A DNA stretch of 54,714 bases. Source: Candidatus Saccharimonadota bacterium (GTDB taxonomy: Bacteria; Patescibacteriota; Saccharimonadia; Saccharimonadales; Saccharimonadaceae). The position numbers were made by a program, and so were the translations under genes. This document shows, in pieces, positions 3,153 through 54,714 of the stretch. A model generated the notes under the pieces. That model did not search any database and had not been told where the DNA came from. It saw only the letters and a program-made list of their open reading frames with translations. The stretch lies in the NCBI GenBank assembly GCA_027492975.1, contig JAPUDS010000022.1, forward strand, positions 1-54,714, in the 5' to 3' direction. Each line of letters starts with the position of its first letter. Within the stretch, counting starts at the first letter, position 1.

Positions 3153-3192
3153 GCCTGAAATCCCGAAACACTCCCCGCTCCCCGCATTCGCC
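3153..3192 (-). repeat. Copy B (inverted orientation) of the 40-nt intergenic repeat
   Basis: The reverse complement GGCGAATGCGGGGAGCGGGGAGTGTTTCGGGATTTCAGGC matches copies A and C with a few mismatches. With copy C it forms an inverted pair separated by about 45 nt. Confidence 0.75.
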
Positions 3193-3237: not shown

Positions 3238-3279
3238 GCGAAAAATGCGGAGTCGGGGGAGGTTTTCGGGATTTCAGGT
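3238..3279 (+). repeat. Copy C of the 40-nt intergenic repeat
   Basis: GCGAAAAATGCGGAGTCGGGGGAGGTTTTCGGGATTTCAGGT. It ends 17 nt before the -35 at 3297. Confidence 0.8.
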
Positions 3280-4365: not shown

Positions 4366-4464
4366 ACCCCCATACTCAACTAGAGAGAGTAAGAGAAAAC
4401 CAAAAACCAGGAGCAAACTAAACCATGGGCGAACAAACCCTAGAACAAACTATTCGTATAGTCG

Positions 4465-5973
4465 TTGGCAATGGCGGAGGTACTCTTGCTGACACTGGCC
4501 TCAACCTACCGTTCTTTATTGCTCTTGCCCTCGGTCTCCTCGCTCTCGGTTTCTTGGTCTCTCTTCCTCTCTCATCGCACTCACAAACTCTCCTTCCAGC
4601 ACCCTACCCCCCAAAGCTCTTCACACTCTTCACACTCTCCTCACTCTCCTCACTCTCCTCACTCTGCTTACTCTACCTTCAAACACTCCATCCTGAACAA
4701 CTTCAAAAACCTCACCGTCTTCACTCTCCTCACGCTTAGCATTACCTCACTCGCTTTCTCTCTTCCCACTGTCTCCGCCGCTCCAACTCTCACCCTAGCT
4801 ACTAACCAACAAACCCTCAACCTTACTATCCCAAAAGGCGGAGGAACTGCAACCACCACCACAACCATAACAACTAGCACACTGAATGACACTGGCTATA
4901 TACTTACTGCTGCACTTGAAGCAGCAGAGCCTGGGATAGGGATAGAGCTAAAAGGTGGCAACATCACTACCAACACTCCACTCACAGCAGCAACCAGTGA
5001 GACACCACTCACTCTTGCAACAACGACTGAAGCGAACTCCTCAGACCCAGAATCTTCAAGCGCTACCGATACTACCACCGTAGATCTTACCTTCACAGTA
5101 GACTCCACTGTCACCGAAGGCACGAAACAACTCAAGCTTATATACAAAGCCGTAGACAACGAACCAGCCACCAACACTGAACCAGTAGCTCCTACTACCA
5201 TGCAAACCATGACCAAAGACTACTGCACTAACCACATGACCATCTATGACGGCACTAACCCGAGCGCCATCCTCACCCTCCAAGATAACCGCGGTGCTAC
5301 TCCAGCCGACTACCGGACGTATGAGGTCGCCAAACTTGCTGACAATAACTGTTGGATGCTTGAGAACTTGAAGTTAGGTTCGACAACTGGGACACTAACT
5401 CTAACGTCGGCCGACACCGACATTGCTAGCGACTTCGTACTACCACAAGTTGTCACGACGGGTACTCCGAGTTATGACGATCCTGGTGTGTATGGTCCAG
5501 TACCGGGTGATACTGGCTCGGGCGCTACTAACTATGGGTATCTGTATAACTGGCCAGCAGCTACAGCGGGGGAGTCGCGTACTAGCATGCCGGCAGGGAG
5601 TGGCGATGCACCGTACTCTATATGTGCAGCGGGGTGGAAGTTGCCGACAGGTGATGTCTGGGGTGAATTTGCCGAGCTTGATATGGCTTTCGGAGGAACG
5701 GGTAGTTATGCAAGCTTTGGTCCTTCTCTCAACAGCTGGCGATACAACGGTCCATTTAAAGGACAATTGGCTGGTAGATGGGACAATGGTTTCTGGGCCT
5801 ATGGTTCGTTCGGTCAAGGTAGATGGTGGTCCGGGTCGGTGAGTTCAAGTACTGGCTATGCCCTCGGTGTAAGAGTTCCTAATAGTAGCAGTGGCGATCT
5901 CTTCCCTGGCGACGGCGAAGCTCTTCGTACTTATGGGTTTAGCCTTCGTTGTATACTTCCAACGGTTCTTTAA
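4465..5973 (+). CDS. Secreted Thr-rich protein with a C-terminal Fibrobacter succinogenes major paralogous (FISUMP, TIGR02145-like) domain. The start is uncertain.
   Basis: Internal signal-peptide-like FKNLTVFTLLTLSITSLAFSLPTVSA|AP. Thr/Ser-rich linker. FISUMP-like motifs CWMLENLKLG, YGYLYNW, CAAGWKLPTGDVW and GFSLRCI. An overlapping ORF at 4425-4739 in another frame holds the only good RBS-ATG. Confidence 0.7.
   Translation: MAMAEVLLLTLASTYRSLLLLPSVSSLSVSWSLFLSHRTHKLSFQHPTPQSSSHSSHSPHSPHSPHSAYSTFKHSILNNFKNLTVFTLLTLSITSLAFSLPTVSAAPTLTLATNQQTLNLTIPKGGGTATTTTTITTSTLNDTGYILTAALEAAEPGIGIELKGGNITTNTPLTAATSETPLTLATTTEANSSDPESSSATDTTTVDLTFTVDSTVTEGTKQLKLIYKAVDNEPATNTEPVAPTTMQTMTKDYCTNHMTIYDGTNPSAILTLQDNRGATPADYRTYEVAKLADNNCWMLENLKLGSTTGTLTLTSADTDIASDFVLPQVVTTGTPSYDDPGVYGPVPGDTGSGATNYGYLYNWPAATAGESRTSMPAGSGDAPYSICAAGWKLPTGDVWGEFAELDMAFGGTGSYASFGPSLNSWRYNGPFKGQLAGRWDNGFWAYGSFGQGRWWSGSVSSSTGYALGVRVPNSSSGDLFPGDGEALRTYGFSLRCILPTVL
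4617..4679 (+). repeat. Tandem 9-bp repeat, 7 units (CTCTTCACA x2, CTCTCCTCA x3, CTCTGCTTA, CTCTACCTT)
   Basis: Read directly. It encodes (SSH)(SSH)(SPH)3 in one frame and (LFT)2(LSS)3 in the overlapping frame. Confidence 0.85.
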
Positions 5974-10019: not shown

Positions 10020-10670
10020 ATGAATAAACATAACCGAGAAACTGGGTCAGTCAACCCCTTGCTTATCGCAAGTATTTTACTTGGACTGGTCGCGGCAGGG
10101 TTTGCCGGGGCGTTTTTCTGGGCCTATGGCAACTACATTGACCAGCGCGATAACACAACAGAGAAGATAGATGTTGCGGTGACGGAGGCGAAAAAAGCCC
10201 AAAGTGTCGAAGACGAAAAAACGTACCTCGAGAAGGCTAAGCAGCCGTATAGCCAGCTGGTGAGTCCGGATGATCTAGGGCGCGTGACCATAAGCTACCC
10301 AAAAACATGGAGCGTCTATGTTGCAAAGTCCAGTTCGACCGACTACGAAGCGTACCTGAACCCGGTTGCTGTTCCGGCTATTTCGTCAACACAGCCATTT
10401 GGCGCGCGTATGGTGATAACGGGCAATAGTTATGACTCTGTCGTCAACAACTACTCTTCGCTCGTGAAAAAAGGTGACCTGAAATCATCGCCAGTAACAG
10501 TCAATAATTTTAACGGTATCCGACTTGATGGCAAGTTTAGTGCAACACGTTCCGGATCGGTGGTGATTTTTAAAGTTCGGGACAAAACCTTGACGCTTGC
10601 AACGGATATCGATTCGTTGAAAGGCGATTTTAACGACGTTATCGTGAATTCGCTGAACTTCAATCCGTAA
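10020..10670 (+). CDS. Hypothetical membrane-anchored extracytoplasmic protein
   Basis: N-terminal TM (LLIASILLGLVAAGFAGAFFWAY) followed by a soluble beta-rich-looking domain. No motif recognised. Confidence 0.5.
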   Translation: MNKHNRETGSVNPLLIASILLGLVAAGFAGAFFWAYGNYIDQRDNTTEKIDVAVTEAKKAQSVEDEKTYLEKAKQPYSQLVSPDDLGRVTISYPKTWSVYVAKSSSTDYEAYLNPVAVPAISSTQPFGARMVITGNSYDSVVNNYSSLVKKGDLKSSPVTVNNFNGIRLDGKFSATRSGSVVIFKVRDKTLTLATDIDSLKGDFNDVIVNSLNFNP

Positions 10671-10673
10671 TAG

Positions 10674-10696
10674 GAGAGTGTTTTCGAGATTCAGGC
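10674..10696 (+). repeat. Partial copy D of the 40-nt intergenic repeat (3' half)
   Basis: GAGAGTGTTTTCGAGATTCAGGC, starting 4 nt after the stop codon at 10668-10670 and 42 nt upstream of a TATACT box (10738-10743). Confidence 0.6.
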
Positions 10697-14193: not shown

Positions 14194-16260
14194 ATGGAAA
14201 CATCCGGGACATCCGAACAGCACAGAGGCGAATTTGGCAAATACAAGGACCTTTCAGGCGAGCAGCTGCTAGGAGAATTGTTAGAAGACCAAAACGGAAA
14301 TACACAGCTGCAGCAACTTATCGTCGAATACGGTATGGAAAGCCTGAAAATCAATCCTTCAAGAGAACGACTCTCGGAACTTGCGGGTAGGATGGATGGG
14401 ATAGCTGAAAATCTAAAAAACGTACCTTCGCCCGAAAATACCATAGCTCCCGATGACGCTGTAGCTGCTATCGACCGATACAACGCCGCCGCGGTTGCTC
14501 ATGGCGAACAAGCGCCAGTGCTCGCTGAGTACGCTACCGCTGTTGATGATATATATAGCCGGCGTGCGGCTGGACGAACCGAACCACCGAAGGGACCAGC
14601 GCCTCCAGCGCCATCGGGAGGGGAAGGTGGTTCAGGCGGTCGGCTACATCTTACACCGGAGGCCGCAAAGCTCGAAGAATCGCTAGATGCGTGGTCAAGT
14701 GAAGCGCGTAGAAAAGCTCAGGCGAGAAGAAATCGTCACGCCCAGGCCGATGCTCAAAAGACAGGACGCGATGGGACGGTTGGTGTGGAAGGGACGAGTA
14801 CCGCAGACCCGCCTGTTGTCGAGGGCGGAGAAGGTGGCTCGTCGGCGGAGTCGGATCTCGCTACGGCTATTCGGGAAGAAAAGGAAGCTACCGCTCGGGT
14901 TGATGCAGCAGAAAAAGGTTCTGAAGAATTTATAAATGCGCTGCAAGAACAGATCGAGGCCCAGCGATGGGTTCAGGAGCTGCTGGATCGACAGGGCGGC
15001 GAACCGGGGCCGGATGAAACCGAACTCAAGCCTGAACCTGAACCCGAACCCGAACCCGAGTCGACACCTCCAGGGTCCTCTGATCTTTCTGGTGACAATA
15101 GTCAAGAATCACCCGACGAAGCGCTACATGCTCACTATCAGGAGTCGCAAAACCAAACAAACGAGGCGCTTCGCGCGCTTGCGGACGCAGAGGAGCTGCA
15201 TGGTGCGGATTCTCAGGAAGTTAGAGATGCGCGAGATGCACTTGCCGCAGCGCAAGCGCAGGAAAATGAGGCGTACGATGCATGGCGACCAGGTGCGTCC
15301 AGGACCGAATCTGGTCCAACACCTGAACCTGAGCCAGAACCTGAACCTGAACCCGGCCCTGAACCTGGCTCCGAATCAGAGCCGGCACCTAGTCCTGAGC
15401 CTGAGCCTGAGCCAACGCCAGAACCAGAACCAACATTTGAGCCGCCAGTAACGTCTGAACCTACGCCAGGCTCCGAACTTCCCAGTGCTCCGCCGAACAC
15501 TACAGAGACCATATCCGGTGCGGATGAAGCCTATGACACACTCCCCGAAGGTATAGGTGGCTCCGTAGAATCTTTGGGTGGAGCTTCACCAGAGTCGGCC
15601 CCGACGTCCGAAGAGGGGTCGATGACCGCTGACGAAGCATTTGACTCGCTTCCGGAAGGAATTAACCAACCTGTAAGCGAAGCGCCTGGTCCGGTCGAGT
15701 CTGAACCAACGCCAGAACCAGGATCTAGTTCAGAACTAGTACCAGAACCAAGCCCCGAGCCAACACCGGAACCTACCCCGGGCCGCATTGCAGAGGACGA
15801 TATTCGTGCGCGCGAGGAAGCTGAGCTTGAACGTCGTCGTAGCGGAGAGTCGTCAGGAGTAGCTACCGGGACACCGGAACGGCCAGAGACACCCAAGCTT
15901 GAGACAGAGCCTACCCCTAGTCGCCCGGCGGAGGATGGTATTCGTGAACTGATGGATGAAAATAAGATAAATCTTGCAGCGGCTGAAGAAGAGTTACAGC
16001 TTGCCGAGCGTTCTCGAAACATGATCACTGAACGTGTGGCCGCATGGCGTCAGGTGATCGAGAGCGCGCCCCGTCGCGGTCAGTTTGCATCTGTAGAAAG
16101 CCAACAAGCCGGACAGGGTATGCTGGAACTCCTTGAGCAGCAGGAAAAGGACGCGCAGCAGCGGTACGACAAAGCAGTAGAGCTCCGAGAGCGGATCTTG
16201 ACGGGTCAGCGTGAGCTGCAGGAACTTCTCGACCGACAACGACAAAACGTCTCCGAATAA
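14194..16260 (+). CDS. Large hyper-acidic, Pro/Glu-repeat (PEPEPE) low-complexity protein with coiled-coil ends
   Basis: 688-aa ORF with runs PEPEPEPEPES and PEPEPEPEPEPGPEPGSESEPAPSPEPEPEPTPEPEP. ELLDRQ is repeated near the middle and at the C-terminus. No signal peptide. Confidence 0.65.
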   Translation: METSGTSEQHRGEFGKYKDLSGEQLLGELLEDQNGNTQLQQLIVEYGMESLKINPSRERLSELAGRMDGIAENLKNVPSPENTIAPDDAVAAIDRYNAAAVAHGEQAPVLAEYATAVDDIYSRRAAGRTEPPKGPAPPAPSGGEGGSGGRLHLTPEAAKLEESLDAWSSEARRKAQARRNRHAQADAQKTGRDGTVGVEGTSTADPPVVEGGEGGSSAESDLATAIREEKEATARVDAAEKGSEEFINALQEQIEAQRWVQELLDRQGGEPGPDETELKPEPEPEPEPESTPPGSSDLSGDNSQESPDEALHAHYQESQNQTNEALRALADAEELHGADSQEVRDARDALAAAQAQENEAYDAWRPGASRTESGPTPEPEPEPEPEPGPEPGSESEPAPSPEPEPEPTPEPEPTFEPPVTSEPTPGSELPSAPPNTTETISGADEAYDTLPEGIGGSVESLGGASPESAPTSEEGSMTADEAFDSLPEGINQPVSEAPGPVESEPTPEPGSSSELVPEPSPEPTPEPTPGRIAEDDIRAREEAELERRRSGESSGVATGTPERPETPKLETEPTPSRPAEDGIRELMDENKINLAAAEEELQLAERSRNMITERVAAWRQVIESAPRRGQFASVESQQAGQGMLELLEQQEKDAQQRYDKAVELRERILTGQRELQELLDRQRQNVSE

Positions 16261-28719: not shown

Positions 28720-28721
28720 GG

Positions 28722-28872
28722 AAGGCTTTCTCCTCTTGACACCCTCTCCGGGGGGGGGGTACCATAAAAGTAACAATAAGCACTAGTACAATCACCTTGC
28801 TTATCGGTATGAGACACATTACTTTTCATAAGGAGGAACCAACAATACCATGACAAGACTACCCACCCCAGG
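28722..28872 (+). repeat. Copy 1 of a duplicated promoter-leader-start cassette. Bases 28760-28872 are identical to 54383-54495.
   Basis: Direct comparison of both stretches. The 113 nt after the G tract are identical, the upstream 40 nt are near-identical, and the coding sequences diverge after codon 8. Confidence 0.9.
28736..28765 (+). promoter_or_regulatory. Putative promoter TTGACA-18 nt-TACCAT whose spacer contains a G10 homopolymer (28750-28759)
   Basis: TTGACA at 28736-28741, spacer CCCTCTCC+G10, TACCAT at 28760-28765. An ~85-nt leader runs to AAGGAGGA and the ATG at 28850. Confidence 0.55.
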
Positions 28873-30188
28873 ACAAGACGCCGGTGCATGGGGCCAAATC
28901 CTCAACGACTATCTCTCAGCAGCTCATAAAGCAGATGGTACGCTAAAGGATAATGCTGTTACTGGTATTACTATTGCAAATGATTCTGTCACAGAAGCTA
29001 ATCTTGCACCGGAAGTAGTAGACAAACTAAACTCAGCTGGTGTTAGTTCTGTAGCTACACTAACAGGAGATATAACATCACCTGATCTTGTAGATGCACT
29101 AGAGACAGATCTCAGACTTCAGTATGCTCCGGTGGCTGGATCGAATTTGACGGCTAGTGGAGAGGACTCCTGGGCGGAGGGACGGGGGGCAACGGCGAGT
29201 GGGAATAATTCGCATGCGGAGGGGTTCCGGACAACCGCATCAACGACTGGTGCTCCTGGAGCACATGCGGAGGGGGCAAATACAGAGGCGACTTTCTATG
29301 CAGCACACGCTGAAGGTGATGGCACAAGAGCGACTCATGCTGGAGCGCATGCGGAAGGAATGACCACGACGGCATCTGCAGCAGGTTCTCATGCAGAAGG
29401 TAGTGGAACTGTGGCAAGTAGCCCCTCTGCTCATGCCGAGGGCAGCCATACGACTGCTAGTGGTACTAAATTCCCACGCAGAGGGTCAAGATACTGTGGC
29501 GAGTAGCAGCATTGCTCACGCGGAGGGCAACCATACGACTGCCAGTGGTGTAAATTCCCACGCAGAGGGTCAAGACACTACCGCCAGTGGAACCAGTTCG
29601 CACGCTGAAGGGTATGGGACGATCGCTAGTCAACCGAGTTCTCACGCAGAGGGTCAGCAAACTACTGCAAACGGACCTCTTTCACACGCCGAGGGTATGT
29701 CAACAACCGCCAGTGGAGCGGTTTCTCATGTCGAAGGCACTAGCGTAACTACCTTTCGTAGTAACGAGTCAGCTCGTGGTAGTGGTGGTTTTGTCCAACA
29801 CGCTTTCGTCCCTGCCAGCAACGGAGCCGCTCATCAAGCGGGTGTTACGTATGTCGCCGCCACCGGTGTTATCACTATCCCAATCCATGGAGGTATCACT
29901 AGTGGCAAGGTTACGGTACTAACCGAAGATGGTGCAATACGTTGGGATATAACCTTTTCGGCTAACAATAATGCCACTACCTATGCAACTAGAGCAACTG
30001 GAACAGTCAGTAGTATCGTAAGTGCGGGGACAAGCAGTCCAACACTCGGCACATCAAGTATCACTTGGACTGTATCTGGCAATACTACGGGGCAAGTCGT
30101 TATAACCCCAAACACCGCACCGCCAGCAATACGAGTATGGTGTGAACTGCTACAGCTTGGATCTCTCGCACAAACAAGACCAGCGTAA
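28850..30188 (+). pseudogene. Surface/fibre-like protein with a conserved N-terminal domain and about fourteen 14-residue SHAEGxxTxASGxx repeats (YadA-head / Hep_Hag-like beta-roll periodicity). The reading frame is interrupted by 1 extra nt at 29465-29468.
   Basis: ORF 28850-29506 and ORF 29391-30188 carry the same repeat in different frames. The total length is 1339 nt, or 3n+1. GGTACTAAATTCCCACGCAGAGGG aligns with the intact unit GGTGTAAATTCCCACGCAGAGGG, showing 1 extra base. Confidence 0.7.
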
Positions 30189-30386
30189 GAAGACTCAATC
30201 TCAAAAAGAATGAATCTCAAAAAAGTCTTCTTTAACAGAGAAGATTTCGTGCAATATAGTTTTACCCACAGCGCTTGAGGAGTTTTCCACGGGCGTTTTC
30301 GGTTATTTGACCAGAAAAGGGGCGGGTGAGGCAAACATTGCGAAACAATATACTAACCATTCGTCAACAGATGAGAAACACAATAC

Positions 30387-54338: not shown

Positions 54339-54495
54339 GCTCTTGCTCTCTCCTCCCCTTGACACCCCCTCCGGGGGGGGGGTACCATAAAAGTAACAAT
54401 AAGCACTAGTACAATCACCTTGCTTATCGGTATGAGACACATTACTTTTCATAAGGAGGAACCAACAATACCATGACAAGACTACCCACCCCAGG
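54339..54495 (+). repeat. Copy 2 of the promoter-leader-start cassette
   Basis: Bases 54383-54495 are identical to 28760-28872. The upstream part is near-identical and includes TTGACA and G10. Confidence 0.9.
54359..54388 (+). promoter_or_regulatory. Second copy of the TTGACA-18 nt-TACCAT promoter with a G10 tract (54373-54382) in the spacer
   Basis: TTGACA at 54359-54364, spacer CCCCCTCC+G10, TACCAT at 54383-54388. Confidence 0.55.
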
Positions 54496-54714
54496 CTCTG
54501 ATGCCGGTGCATGGGGTCAAATCCTCAACGACTATCTCTCAACTACCCATAAACAAGACGGTACTCTCAAAGACAATGTCGTCGGTAGTGCTCAACTCCA
54601 AGACAACGCTATAACAACTACTCAACTAGCAGATGATACCGTCACAGAGTCTAACTTAGCTCCTGAAGTAGTAGATAAACTAAACACTCCTCCCTCCTGG
54701 ACAGACCTTACCGA
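54473..54714 (+). CDS. 5' part (runs off the window) of a paralog of the 28850 surface-protein gene
   Basis: MTRLPTPGSDAGAWGQILNDYLSTTHKQDGTLKDN...LAPEVVDKLN compares with MTRLPTPGQDAGAWGQILNDYLSAAHKADGTLKDN...LAPEVVDKLN in the 28850 gene. Open to the window end. Confidence 0.75.
   Translation, partial: MTRLPTPGSDAGAWGQILNDYLSTTHKQDGTLKDNVVGSAQLQDNAITTTQLADDTVTESNLAPEVVDKLNTPPSWTDLT

Follow-up and report, generated by a model that had tools for sequence, protein, structure and literature searches.

In Mycoplasma hyorhinis, the vlp genes encode lipoprotein paralogs that are switched gene by gene and that join a conserved 5' block, which includes a homopolymer in the promoter spacer, to divergent, repetitive 3' parts. 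Poly-G runs hold a similar position between the -35 and -10 elements of porA in Neisseria meningitidis and in the promoter spacer of tp0126 in Treponema pallidum, where run length sets the distance between the two elements, with 17 nucleotides (nt) as the optimum, and so the level of transcription (PMC7864442). T. pallidum also has promoter poly-G at tprE/G/J/F/I/L, along with many length-variable poly-G tracts across its genome (PMC7864442). The present analysis concerns a 54,714-nt stretch of a Candidatus Saccharimonadota genome (contig JAPUDS010000022.1, positions 1 to 54,714, hereafter the window), in which two copies of a promoter-leader cassette with a run of ten guanines (G10) precede two members of a phage-tail-fibre-like gene family, gene 1 behind copy 1 and paralog 2 behind copy 2.

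These two self-contained cassettes, each driving one phage-tail-fibre-like paralog, probably represent promoter-repeat phase variation, an arrangement through which other bacteria randomly turn surface proteins on or off. Replication slippage in the G run, through slipped-strand mispairing, would change the spacing between the -35 and -10 hexamers, which is 18 nt at present; a G9 run would restore the canonical 17 nt, and longer runs would give poorer spacing. Transcription of each paralog could in this way be switched or graded on its own, in a heritable and reversible manner. Recombination between the paralogs would preserve a uniform switch module and let the distal parts diversify, and these parts could also be reassorted. 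The scheme supposes that the TTGACA and TACCAT hexamers form an active promoter, that G-run length would control expression, and that the products would be trimeric fibres displayed at the surface for host-bacterium contact or phage escape.

A promoter scan predicts both copies as sigma-70-type promoters with 10 of 12 consensus matches, consisting of TTGACA, an 18-nt spacer and TACCAT. The spacer is made up of eight pyrimidine-rich bases followed by G10, which abuts the -10 hexamer, so that a homopolymer of at least about 8 nt lies between recognisable -35 and -10 hexamers at 28736-28765 and at 54359-54388. No other G/C runs of 8 or more occur in the window. Both cassettes begin at most about 20 nt after the stop codon of the upstream gene, with a short pyrimidine-rich stretch in between, and in both the strong ribosome-binding sequence AAGGAGG stands 13 nt before the ATG. 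The parts of the two copies are as follows.

28720-28735, + strand: pyrimidine-rich stretch of copy 1, between the stop codon of a GalU-like gene and the -35 hexamer; similar YYCCC-TTGACA flanks occur in relatives
28736-28741, + strand: predicted -35 hexamer TTGACA of copy 1 (promoter scan); the same hexamer occurs in relatives
28742-28759, + strand: 18-nt spacer of copy 1, CCCTCTCC followed by G10 (28750-28759), the proposed slippage tract
28760-28765, + strand: predicted -10 hexamer TACCAT of copy 1 (promoter scan), abutting the G run
28766-28849, + strand: 84-nt leader of copy 1, with the 5' box AAAAGTAACAATAAGCA, a lineage-specific insert and AAGGAGG at 28830-28836
28746-28872, + strand: 127-nt exact-match block of copy 1, equal to 54369-54495
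54339-54358, + strand: pyrimidine-rich stretch of copy 2, between the stop codon of an open reading frame (ORF) of 308 amino acids (aa) and the -35 hexamer
54359-54364, + strand: predicted -35 hexamer TTGACA of copy 2 (promoter scan)
54365-54382, + strand: 18-nt spacer of copy 2, CCCCCTCC followed by G10 (54373-54382)
54383-54388, + strand: predicted -10 hexamer TACCAT of copy 2 (promoter scan)
54389-54472, + strand: 84-nt leader of copy 2, the same as in copy 1, with AAGGAGG at 54453-54459

In almost all cassettes, those of relatives included, the segment that separates the G run from the -35 hexamer is C-rich (CCCTCTCC, AACCCCTC, TCCCCGCCA; 28742-28749 and 54365-54372 in the window), so that a C-rich segment faces the G run.

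The preliminary description of this DNA held that a second promoter-leader cassette, identical to the first over 113 nt apart from a few differing bases upstream and carrying G10 like the first, precedes a diverged paralog within which the window ends. A recount bears this out in each respect. All 113 bases of 28760-28872 match 54383-54495, a stretch that spans the -10 hexamer, the 84-nt leader, AAGGAGG, codons 1-7 and two bases of codon 8. The maximal exact match is longer, at 127 nt (28746-28872 and 54369-54495), and takes in G10 and the last four bases of the spacer that precede it; with mismatches allowed, the repeat extends to 226 nt at 92% identity (28730-28955 and 54353-54578). Upstream of the block, the promoter regions differ at 28745 (T/C, in the spacer) and at 28734. 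Past it, the coding DNA of the two copies agrees at 65 of 82 nt and differs at 17, giving the peptides MTRLPTPGQDAGAW..SAAHKADG in copy 1 and MTRLPTPGSDAGAW..STTHKQDG in copy 2, and the window stops after 80 codons of paralog 2. All 98 repeated 30-mers of the window fall within the block, which leaves no other exact repeat of at least 30 nt, and the duplication cannot have arisen by chance.

The same arrangement recurs in relatives, here 81 family genes (among them L001, the closest homolog of gene 1) from genome bins mostly labelled Saccharibacteria. A G run of at least 7 lies within 200 nt upstream of 20 of these 81 genes, or about one quarter. The 20 runs fall in 15.9 kilobases (kb) of upstream DNA, compared with 7 G/C runs in the remaining 440 kb, and every one of them lies between TTGAC(A) and TAnnnT (TACCAT, TATACT, TATCAT, TATGGT and others). 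Even among the seven background runs, four sit in family-type promoters, namely of a tandem second family gene (one), of type IV pilin-like genes (two) and of an ORF of unknown function (one); the other three are coding. Cassettes can be numerous within a genome: the Saccharibacterial metagenome genome Ga0209572 has at least seven G10 cassettes with conserved leaders, all before family genes (from a promoter-only pattern run against the Joint Genome Institute (JGI) metagenomes), and the CAZGGJ01 genome has four. A 24-nt piece of the window leader gave no match in the JGI metagenomes.

Across relatives the runs range from G7 to G17 and the spacers from 14 to 23 nt with a mode of 19 nt, G10 being the commonest assembled length. 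Relatives that have the same hexamers and either no run or an interrupted one show canonical spacers between TTGAC(A/T) and TACCAT, of 17 nt (L001 and L005), 18 nt (L058) and 16 nt (L064). L001 keeps both hexamers at 17 nt with no G run at all, and L058 and L064 have broken runs such as GGGGAGGG and GGGGTGG where the pure run would be. At 18 nt, the two promoters in the window fall within the range of these run-free relatives; most of the assembled cassettes in other genomes have spacers of at least 19 nt and would be weak or off.

A difference in run length at a single locus comes from P0067, at which four assemblies read G14, G14, G12 and G16, corresponding to spacers of 18, 18, 16 and 20 nt. 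Over 1,300 nt upstream of the run, the assemblies differ from one another at only 0-7 positions (at least 99.5% identity), and the only other differences at the locus are changes in the length of the collagen-repeat region. Of the data at hand, this comparison comes closest to a test of hypermutability. P0067 was recovered from six assemblies in all, in two of which the contig starts inside the G run. The collagen-triplet region itself, about 260 nt after the start codon (L143-L146), shows insertions and deletions between samples with near-identical flanks, and assemblies break or are masked there. Multi-sample look-ups of six other family loci (P0004, P0110, P0089, P0091, P0083 and P0023) found no G run.

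The cassette is also found before type IV pilin-like genes (GFTIVELLIVI..), at L033:2326-2357 and L068:2319-2350, the latter sharing the leader box as well. A C8 run, read on the gene strand, closely follows the -35 hexamer of a further pilin-like gene (L135, near 4275), and in CAZGGJ01 a pilin gene and an unrelated ORF (L061:6033) are preceded by the same sequence from -35 to -10. A linkage between family genes and pilin genes was considered and set aside: a pilin-like gene is near 8 of the 81 loci, judged to be about what chance gives in a pilin-rich genome, with the expectation only roughly estimated. A second type of repeat, (GA)7-9, lies in the conserved element ..TAATCACAAC..AAAAT-(GA)n-C.ATAAAAG before 5 of the 81 family genes (L022, L035, L043, L051 and L052), 50-96 nt upstream of the start codon, and has no occurrence in the 440-kb background; a further type of variable promoter may be involved. 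Outside the Saccharibacteria, the pattern TTGACA-N6-11-G(8 or more)-TACCAT precedes lipoprotein-like and response-regulator genes on other metagenome contigs (L082-L110), including a homologous pair with G8 in one and G9 in the other (L087/L108). These matches may be poly-G promoters of other phyla or may be due to chance.

The genes behind the cassettes open with the same N-terminal module and run as follows.

28850-29506, + strand: gene 1, first frame, 218 aa, with the N-terminal module, 10-residue repeats and six 42-nt (14-aa) SHAEG units
29465-29474, + strand: +1 frameshift in gene 1, located by repeat phasing, where one SHAEG unit measures 43 nt, not 42
29475-30188, + strand: gene 1, next frame, with six further SHAEG units ahead of a C-terminal domain of about 130 aa (ORF 29391-30188, 265 codons open)
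54473-54714, + strand: first 80 codons of paralog 2, with the same module, an extra 10-residue repeat and ..NTPPSWTDLT, continuing past the window

In gene 1, the module (MTRLPTPGQDAGAWGQILNDYLSAAHKADGTLKDN) is followed by two 10-residue VTxxxIAxD repeats, a linker, twelve SHAEG units and the C-terminal domain, which is also present in the L001 homolog. The SHAEG repeats match the trimeric-adhesin head of BpaC (PDB 7o23, E 7.5e-12), and the frame-repaired protein scores 26.0 bits against PF05658, the model of YadA-head-type repeats, at a cutoff of 25. The P-x-W-x-x-L motif of paralog 2 likewise follows the module in long relatives that have beta-helix or DUF2961 domains. An AlphaFold model of the 218-aa product has a mean predicted local distance difference test (pLDDT) score of 59.6 and is confident for residues 11-100 only; Foldseek comparison of this model with PDB and BFVD returned nothing significant except a protein of phage BRock.

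Read from its sequence, the N-terminus (MTRLPTPGQDAGAWGQILNDYL) has no hydrophobic segment, signal peptide or lipobox, and the module thus offers no classical export signal. No LPXTG-type sortase motif occurs in the window, and Pfam finds no YadA-anchor beta-barrel domain. The preliminary description had called the products surface proteins, a label that is only putative: they resemble tail fibres and trimeric-adhesin heads, but neither a signal peptide nor an anchor was found.

Because the frame downstream of the frameshift stays open for 265 codons, the lesion in gene 1 is recent, polymorphic or an error. Gene 1 may thus far be read as a possible pseudogene. Interruptions are common in the family, and in every case given here the reading frame beyond them continues for hundreds of codons. 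In L001, an in-frame TAG falls between SHAEG repeats (L001:10583-10585), P0067 has an in-frame TAA at codon 60 (L143-L145:1678-1680) in all five assemblies that reach that codon, and P0091 (L135:2501-2668) is frameshifted in eight assemblies. Read-through or recoding of in-frame stops was tried as an account and rejected, given that in most cases the apparent continuation is simply the following gene in an operon and that true mid-gene stops include both TAG and TAA.

Searches with a profile of the N-terminal module place the two window genes in a very large, unnamed, phage-tail-fibre-like family that is almost entirely Saccharibacterial. Species-representative genomes hold 80 loci, often several per genome and nearly all labelled Saccharibacteria or Saccharimonadales, and among 1.84 billion cluster representatives the profile retrieves 6,521 proteins at E <= 1e-3, of which 3,268 also pass E <= 1e-10. 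Genomes of relatives carry 4 to 7 or more copies each; the family is multi-locus, as had been proposed from the window. The module of about 35 aa almost always starts at residue 1, in proteins of 78 to 1,831 aa. The N-terminus is conserved among members (20 of 64 positions are invariant), and the parts beyond it are very diverse: they include collagen triplets, DUF5907, phage-tail-repeat (PTR) segments, pectate-lyase-type beta-helices, DUF2961, Phage_tail_C and SHAEG repeats. PHROG tail-fibre and minor-tail-protein families match, and a collagen-repeat protein of Streptomyces phage BRock carries the module at 56% identity over 36 aa. The module also occurs on a high-GC IMG/VR phage contig (L149), within a run of same-strand ORFs that we read as candidate tail genes. 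Neither Pfam nor NCBIfam has a model for the module, and its profile finds no relative among PDB sequences.

Several observations weigh against promoter-repeat phase variation. P0067 is the sole informative length-variable locus among those looked up, and both window loci are G10 and come from a single assembly. At P0010, a G7 cassette with a 14-nt spacer shows no change across five samples, which would fit a greater stability of short runs, and the 14-23-nt range of spacers in relatives is wider than a one-step switch requires. The length of the exact block, 127 nt, is a common assembler k, and its perfect identity could partly stem from assembly. With neither signal peptide, lipobox, sortase motif nor membrane anchor, the surface location of the proteins is only putative, and given the frameshift in gene 1 and the interruptions in several relatives, some copies may no longer be functional.

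The first alternative, an assembly effect, concerns the identity of the two 5' ends: by collapsing a bubble or choosing a path where the loci share a k-mer, the assembler would have produced the 127-nt match, or the joining of 3' parts to 5' flanks, and the true leaders would differ, as they do in other paralog pairs. The block is exactly as long as the maximal k of common assemblers, the contig stops 219 nt past it, many family matches are contig-end fragments, some contigs start inside G runs, and the exact blocks that cassettes share within other genomes reach only 26-56 nt. Promoter bases and coding sequence differ between the copies, however, and in each they are contiguous with unique flanks, so that there must be two loci; the contig runs through copy 1 and on for 26 kb. 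An independent JGI assembly contains a comparable pair, L093/L097, with leaders 98% identical and coding sequences 71% identical. We regard an assembly effect as unlikely, and such an artefact would in any case leave the G10 promoter and the paralogy standing.

Recent gene conversion or recombination between the paralogs best explains the identical 5' ends and is also the simplest account, judged from the pattern of divergence along the two copies. No difference is seen in 127 nt, against 21% divergence in the coding DNA downstream, where 7 of 23 codons for the same amino acid differ synonymously; at that divergence, the probability of a block without differences is P ~1.5e-13. The L093/L097 pair, from another genome, repeats this pattern. 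Of the two explanations originally offered for the conserved leader, homogenisation and a constraint such as regulatory RNA structure, homogenisation is therefore the better.

Less probable than an assembly effect is a static promoter, in which the G run would be a fixed feature of the family, acting as a spacer, a discriminator or a regulator site under conventional control. The invariance of P0010 in five samples and the prevalence of G10 among assembled lengths fit this view, and the conserved leader box AGaaGTAAAcTAACCACAAGCA together with the pyrimidine-rich flank could bind a protein. A fixed feature is difficult to reconcile with runs of G6 to G17 across paralogs and orthologs, and with lengths that differ between samples at P0067 next to near-identical flanks. 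Relatives without any G run, moreover, keep the same hexamer spacing, and interrupted runs replace the pure run in L058 and L064. Such a static role is accordingly something we consider distinctly doubtful.

A third possibility, which we hold to be improbable, is that the genes are tail-fibre genes of a prophage or its remnant, or encode phage- or tailocin-like fibres, with the shared 5' end serving as a phage late promoter. The module and several of the distal domains are common to phage tail proteins, and some relatives adjoin large LamG or beta-helix genes in fibre-like operons. The window, however, comes from a Saccharibacteria-type (TM7, Patescibacteria) chromosome, with cellular neighbours and no other phage genes flanking either copy. 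Copy 1 follows CofD and the GalU-like gene and is followed by MraZ, RsmH and a division and cell-wall cluster; the best organism-named matches of RsmH are Candidatus Saccharibacteria at 65-67% identity, with other relatives reaching up to 88%. Copy 2 is preceded by DprA, a ZIP transporter and Pth, and the 308-aa ORF directly upstream of it has no Pfam match. Exact-protein look-ups of two window genes upstream of the cassettes returned no record.

Comparison with a close genome also argues against a prophage. The related 934-kb contig L159, whose rsmH is 84% identical to that of the window at the DNA level, keeps the order CofD ... GalU-like gene, small ORF, MraZ, RsmH, and has no counterpart of 28720-30261, which holds the cassette and gene 1. 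The difference is a clean single-gene insertion or deletion of about 1.5 kb at L159:8710-8721, and cassette and gene thus behave as one presence/absence unit. That the same cassette precedes pilin genes is a further point against a phage late promoter.

The leaders themselves vary widely among relatives. Twenty related leaders have in common only the 5' box AGaaGTAAAcTAACCACAAGCA and the ribosome-binding box CTATGGAGGTG, with unrelated inserts of 0-45 nt between them, and leader length ranges from 38 to 148 nt. Several of the inserts are near-perfect hairpins, for example GGAACTATATACC-GTCA-GGTATATAGTTCC in L063 (insert-bearing leaders occur in L012, L063/L065, L004 and L130), and the insert of the window leader (28776-28826) has weak A/U-rich complementary segments. 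The minimum free energy (MFE) of the window leader is -10.5 kcal/mol, compared with -9.5 +/- 3.0 for shuffled sequences (z -0.32), RNAalifold finds 0 consensus pairs in the 20 related leaders, and the leader has no Rfam match. A leader RNA element such as a riboswitch, thermometer or attenuator, which the 84 perfectly conserved non-coding nt and the short complementary segments AAAAGUAA/UUACUUUU and AUAAGCA/UGCUUAU might suggest, is very improbable in view of this ordinary folding energy, the missing consensus pairs and the unrelated inserts of changing length; constraint by RNA structure, as put forward in the preliminary description, is thus not the reason for the identity.

Other repeats in the window lie apart from the cassettes. 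A 9-nt unit, CCTCACTCT and variants of it, forms an array of 8 copies in two groups at 4610-4745, overlapping the + strand ORFs 4425-4739 and 4465-5973, in which it would encode three-residue repeats (LTL or SPH, depending on frame). The 30-nt motif AATGCGGAGTCGGGGGAGGTTTTCGAGATT occurs at 75-104, 3154-3188, 3244-3273 and 10662-10691, as three direct copies and one inverted; the inverted partner is 55 nt from the second copy, with 35-nt arms that are 83% complementary. Low-complexity Pro-Glu repeats (PEPEPE) extend over 15015-15443 inside the 688-aa ORF 14194-16260. The window contains no tRNA genes and no Rfam matches.

Saccharibacteria are obligate epibionts of other bacteria. A broader and more tentative reading is that they keep a large repertoire of domesticated, receptor-binding-like fibres, together with some pilins, under one recombining G-run cassette that switches at random, which would amount to a host-range contingency system. 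The shared N-terminal module would then be a docking module, and a population would keep varying which host structures are grasped or degraded, or which receptors for its own phages are exposed. The way in which ultrasmall epibiotic bacteria of the Candidate Phyla Radiation recognise, hold and change hosts is little understood, and the cassette family is a concrete and abundant candidate system for it. Full-text literature searches returned no paper in which phase variation, homopolymeric tracts or tail-fibre-like families of this kind are connected with Saccharibacteria, Patescibacteria or the Candidate Phyla Radiation. A switch that operated as it does in Neisseria and Treponema would be, as far as these searches show, the first contingency-locus system in this radiation, and it would matter for the host range of these organisms, for their escape from phages and for variation at the strain level. 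The genes and their G runs also explain broken assemblies and truncated gene calls.

The distal parts of the proteins resemble two groups of described fibres. With the fibres of BRock and other actinophages, they share the module and a modular layout in which a conserved N-terminus is followed by collagen, beta-helix or Phage_tail_C; the window genes differ in standing singly, in cellular neighbourhoods, with a promoter of their own and outside a virion gene cluster. Gene 1 resembles YadA and BpaC in its 14-residue SHAEG units, which match the head repeats of those adhesins, but it lacks both the C-terminal beta-barrel anchor and the signal peptide, and for this reason the products are not trimeric autotransporters. 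Nor are Saccharibacteria known to possess an outer membrane of the kind such adhesins require.

As regards the switch, the window cassettes are like porA and tp0126 in having a G homopolymer in a sigma-70-type spacer. They differ in their host, a Patescibacterium, in their product, which is tail-fibre-like and not a porin, and in that the run always abuts the -10 hexamer. The tpr genes offer the parallel of several paralogs of one family, each with its own promoter poly-G. The tprL run, however, overlaps the -10 region and does not lie in the spacer, and Tpr proteins have signal peptides and are located in the outer membrane, whereas the Saccharibacterial proteins have no export signal and belong to another fold class. 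The vlp genes come close in overall design, with a conserved block of promoter, leader and N-terminus ahead of divergent, repetitive distal parts, but they are clustered, use a poly-A tract and encode a lipoprotein signal peptide, in contrast to the dispersed window genes, which have no signal peptide. Set beside these systems, we rate the switch mechanism as known, and the phylum, the gene family and the use of the same cassette for pilin genes as new.

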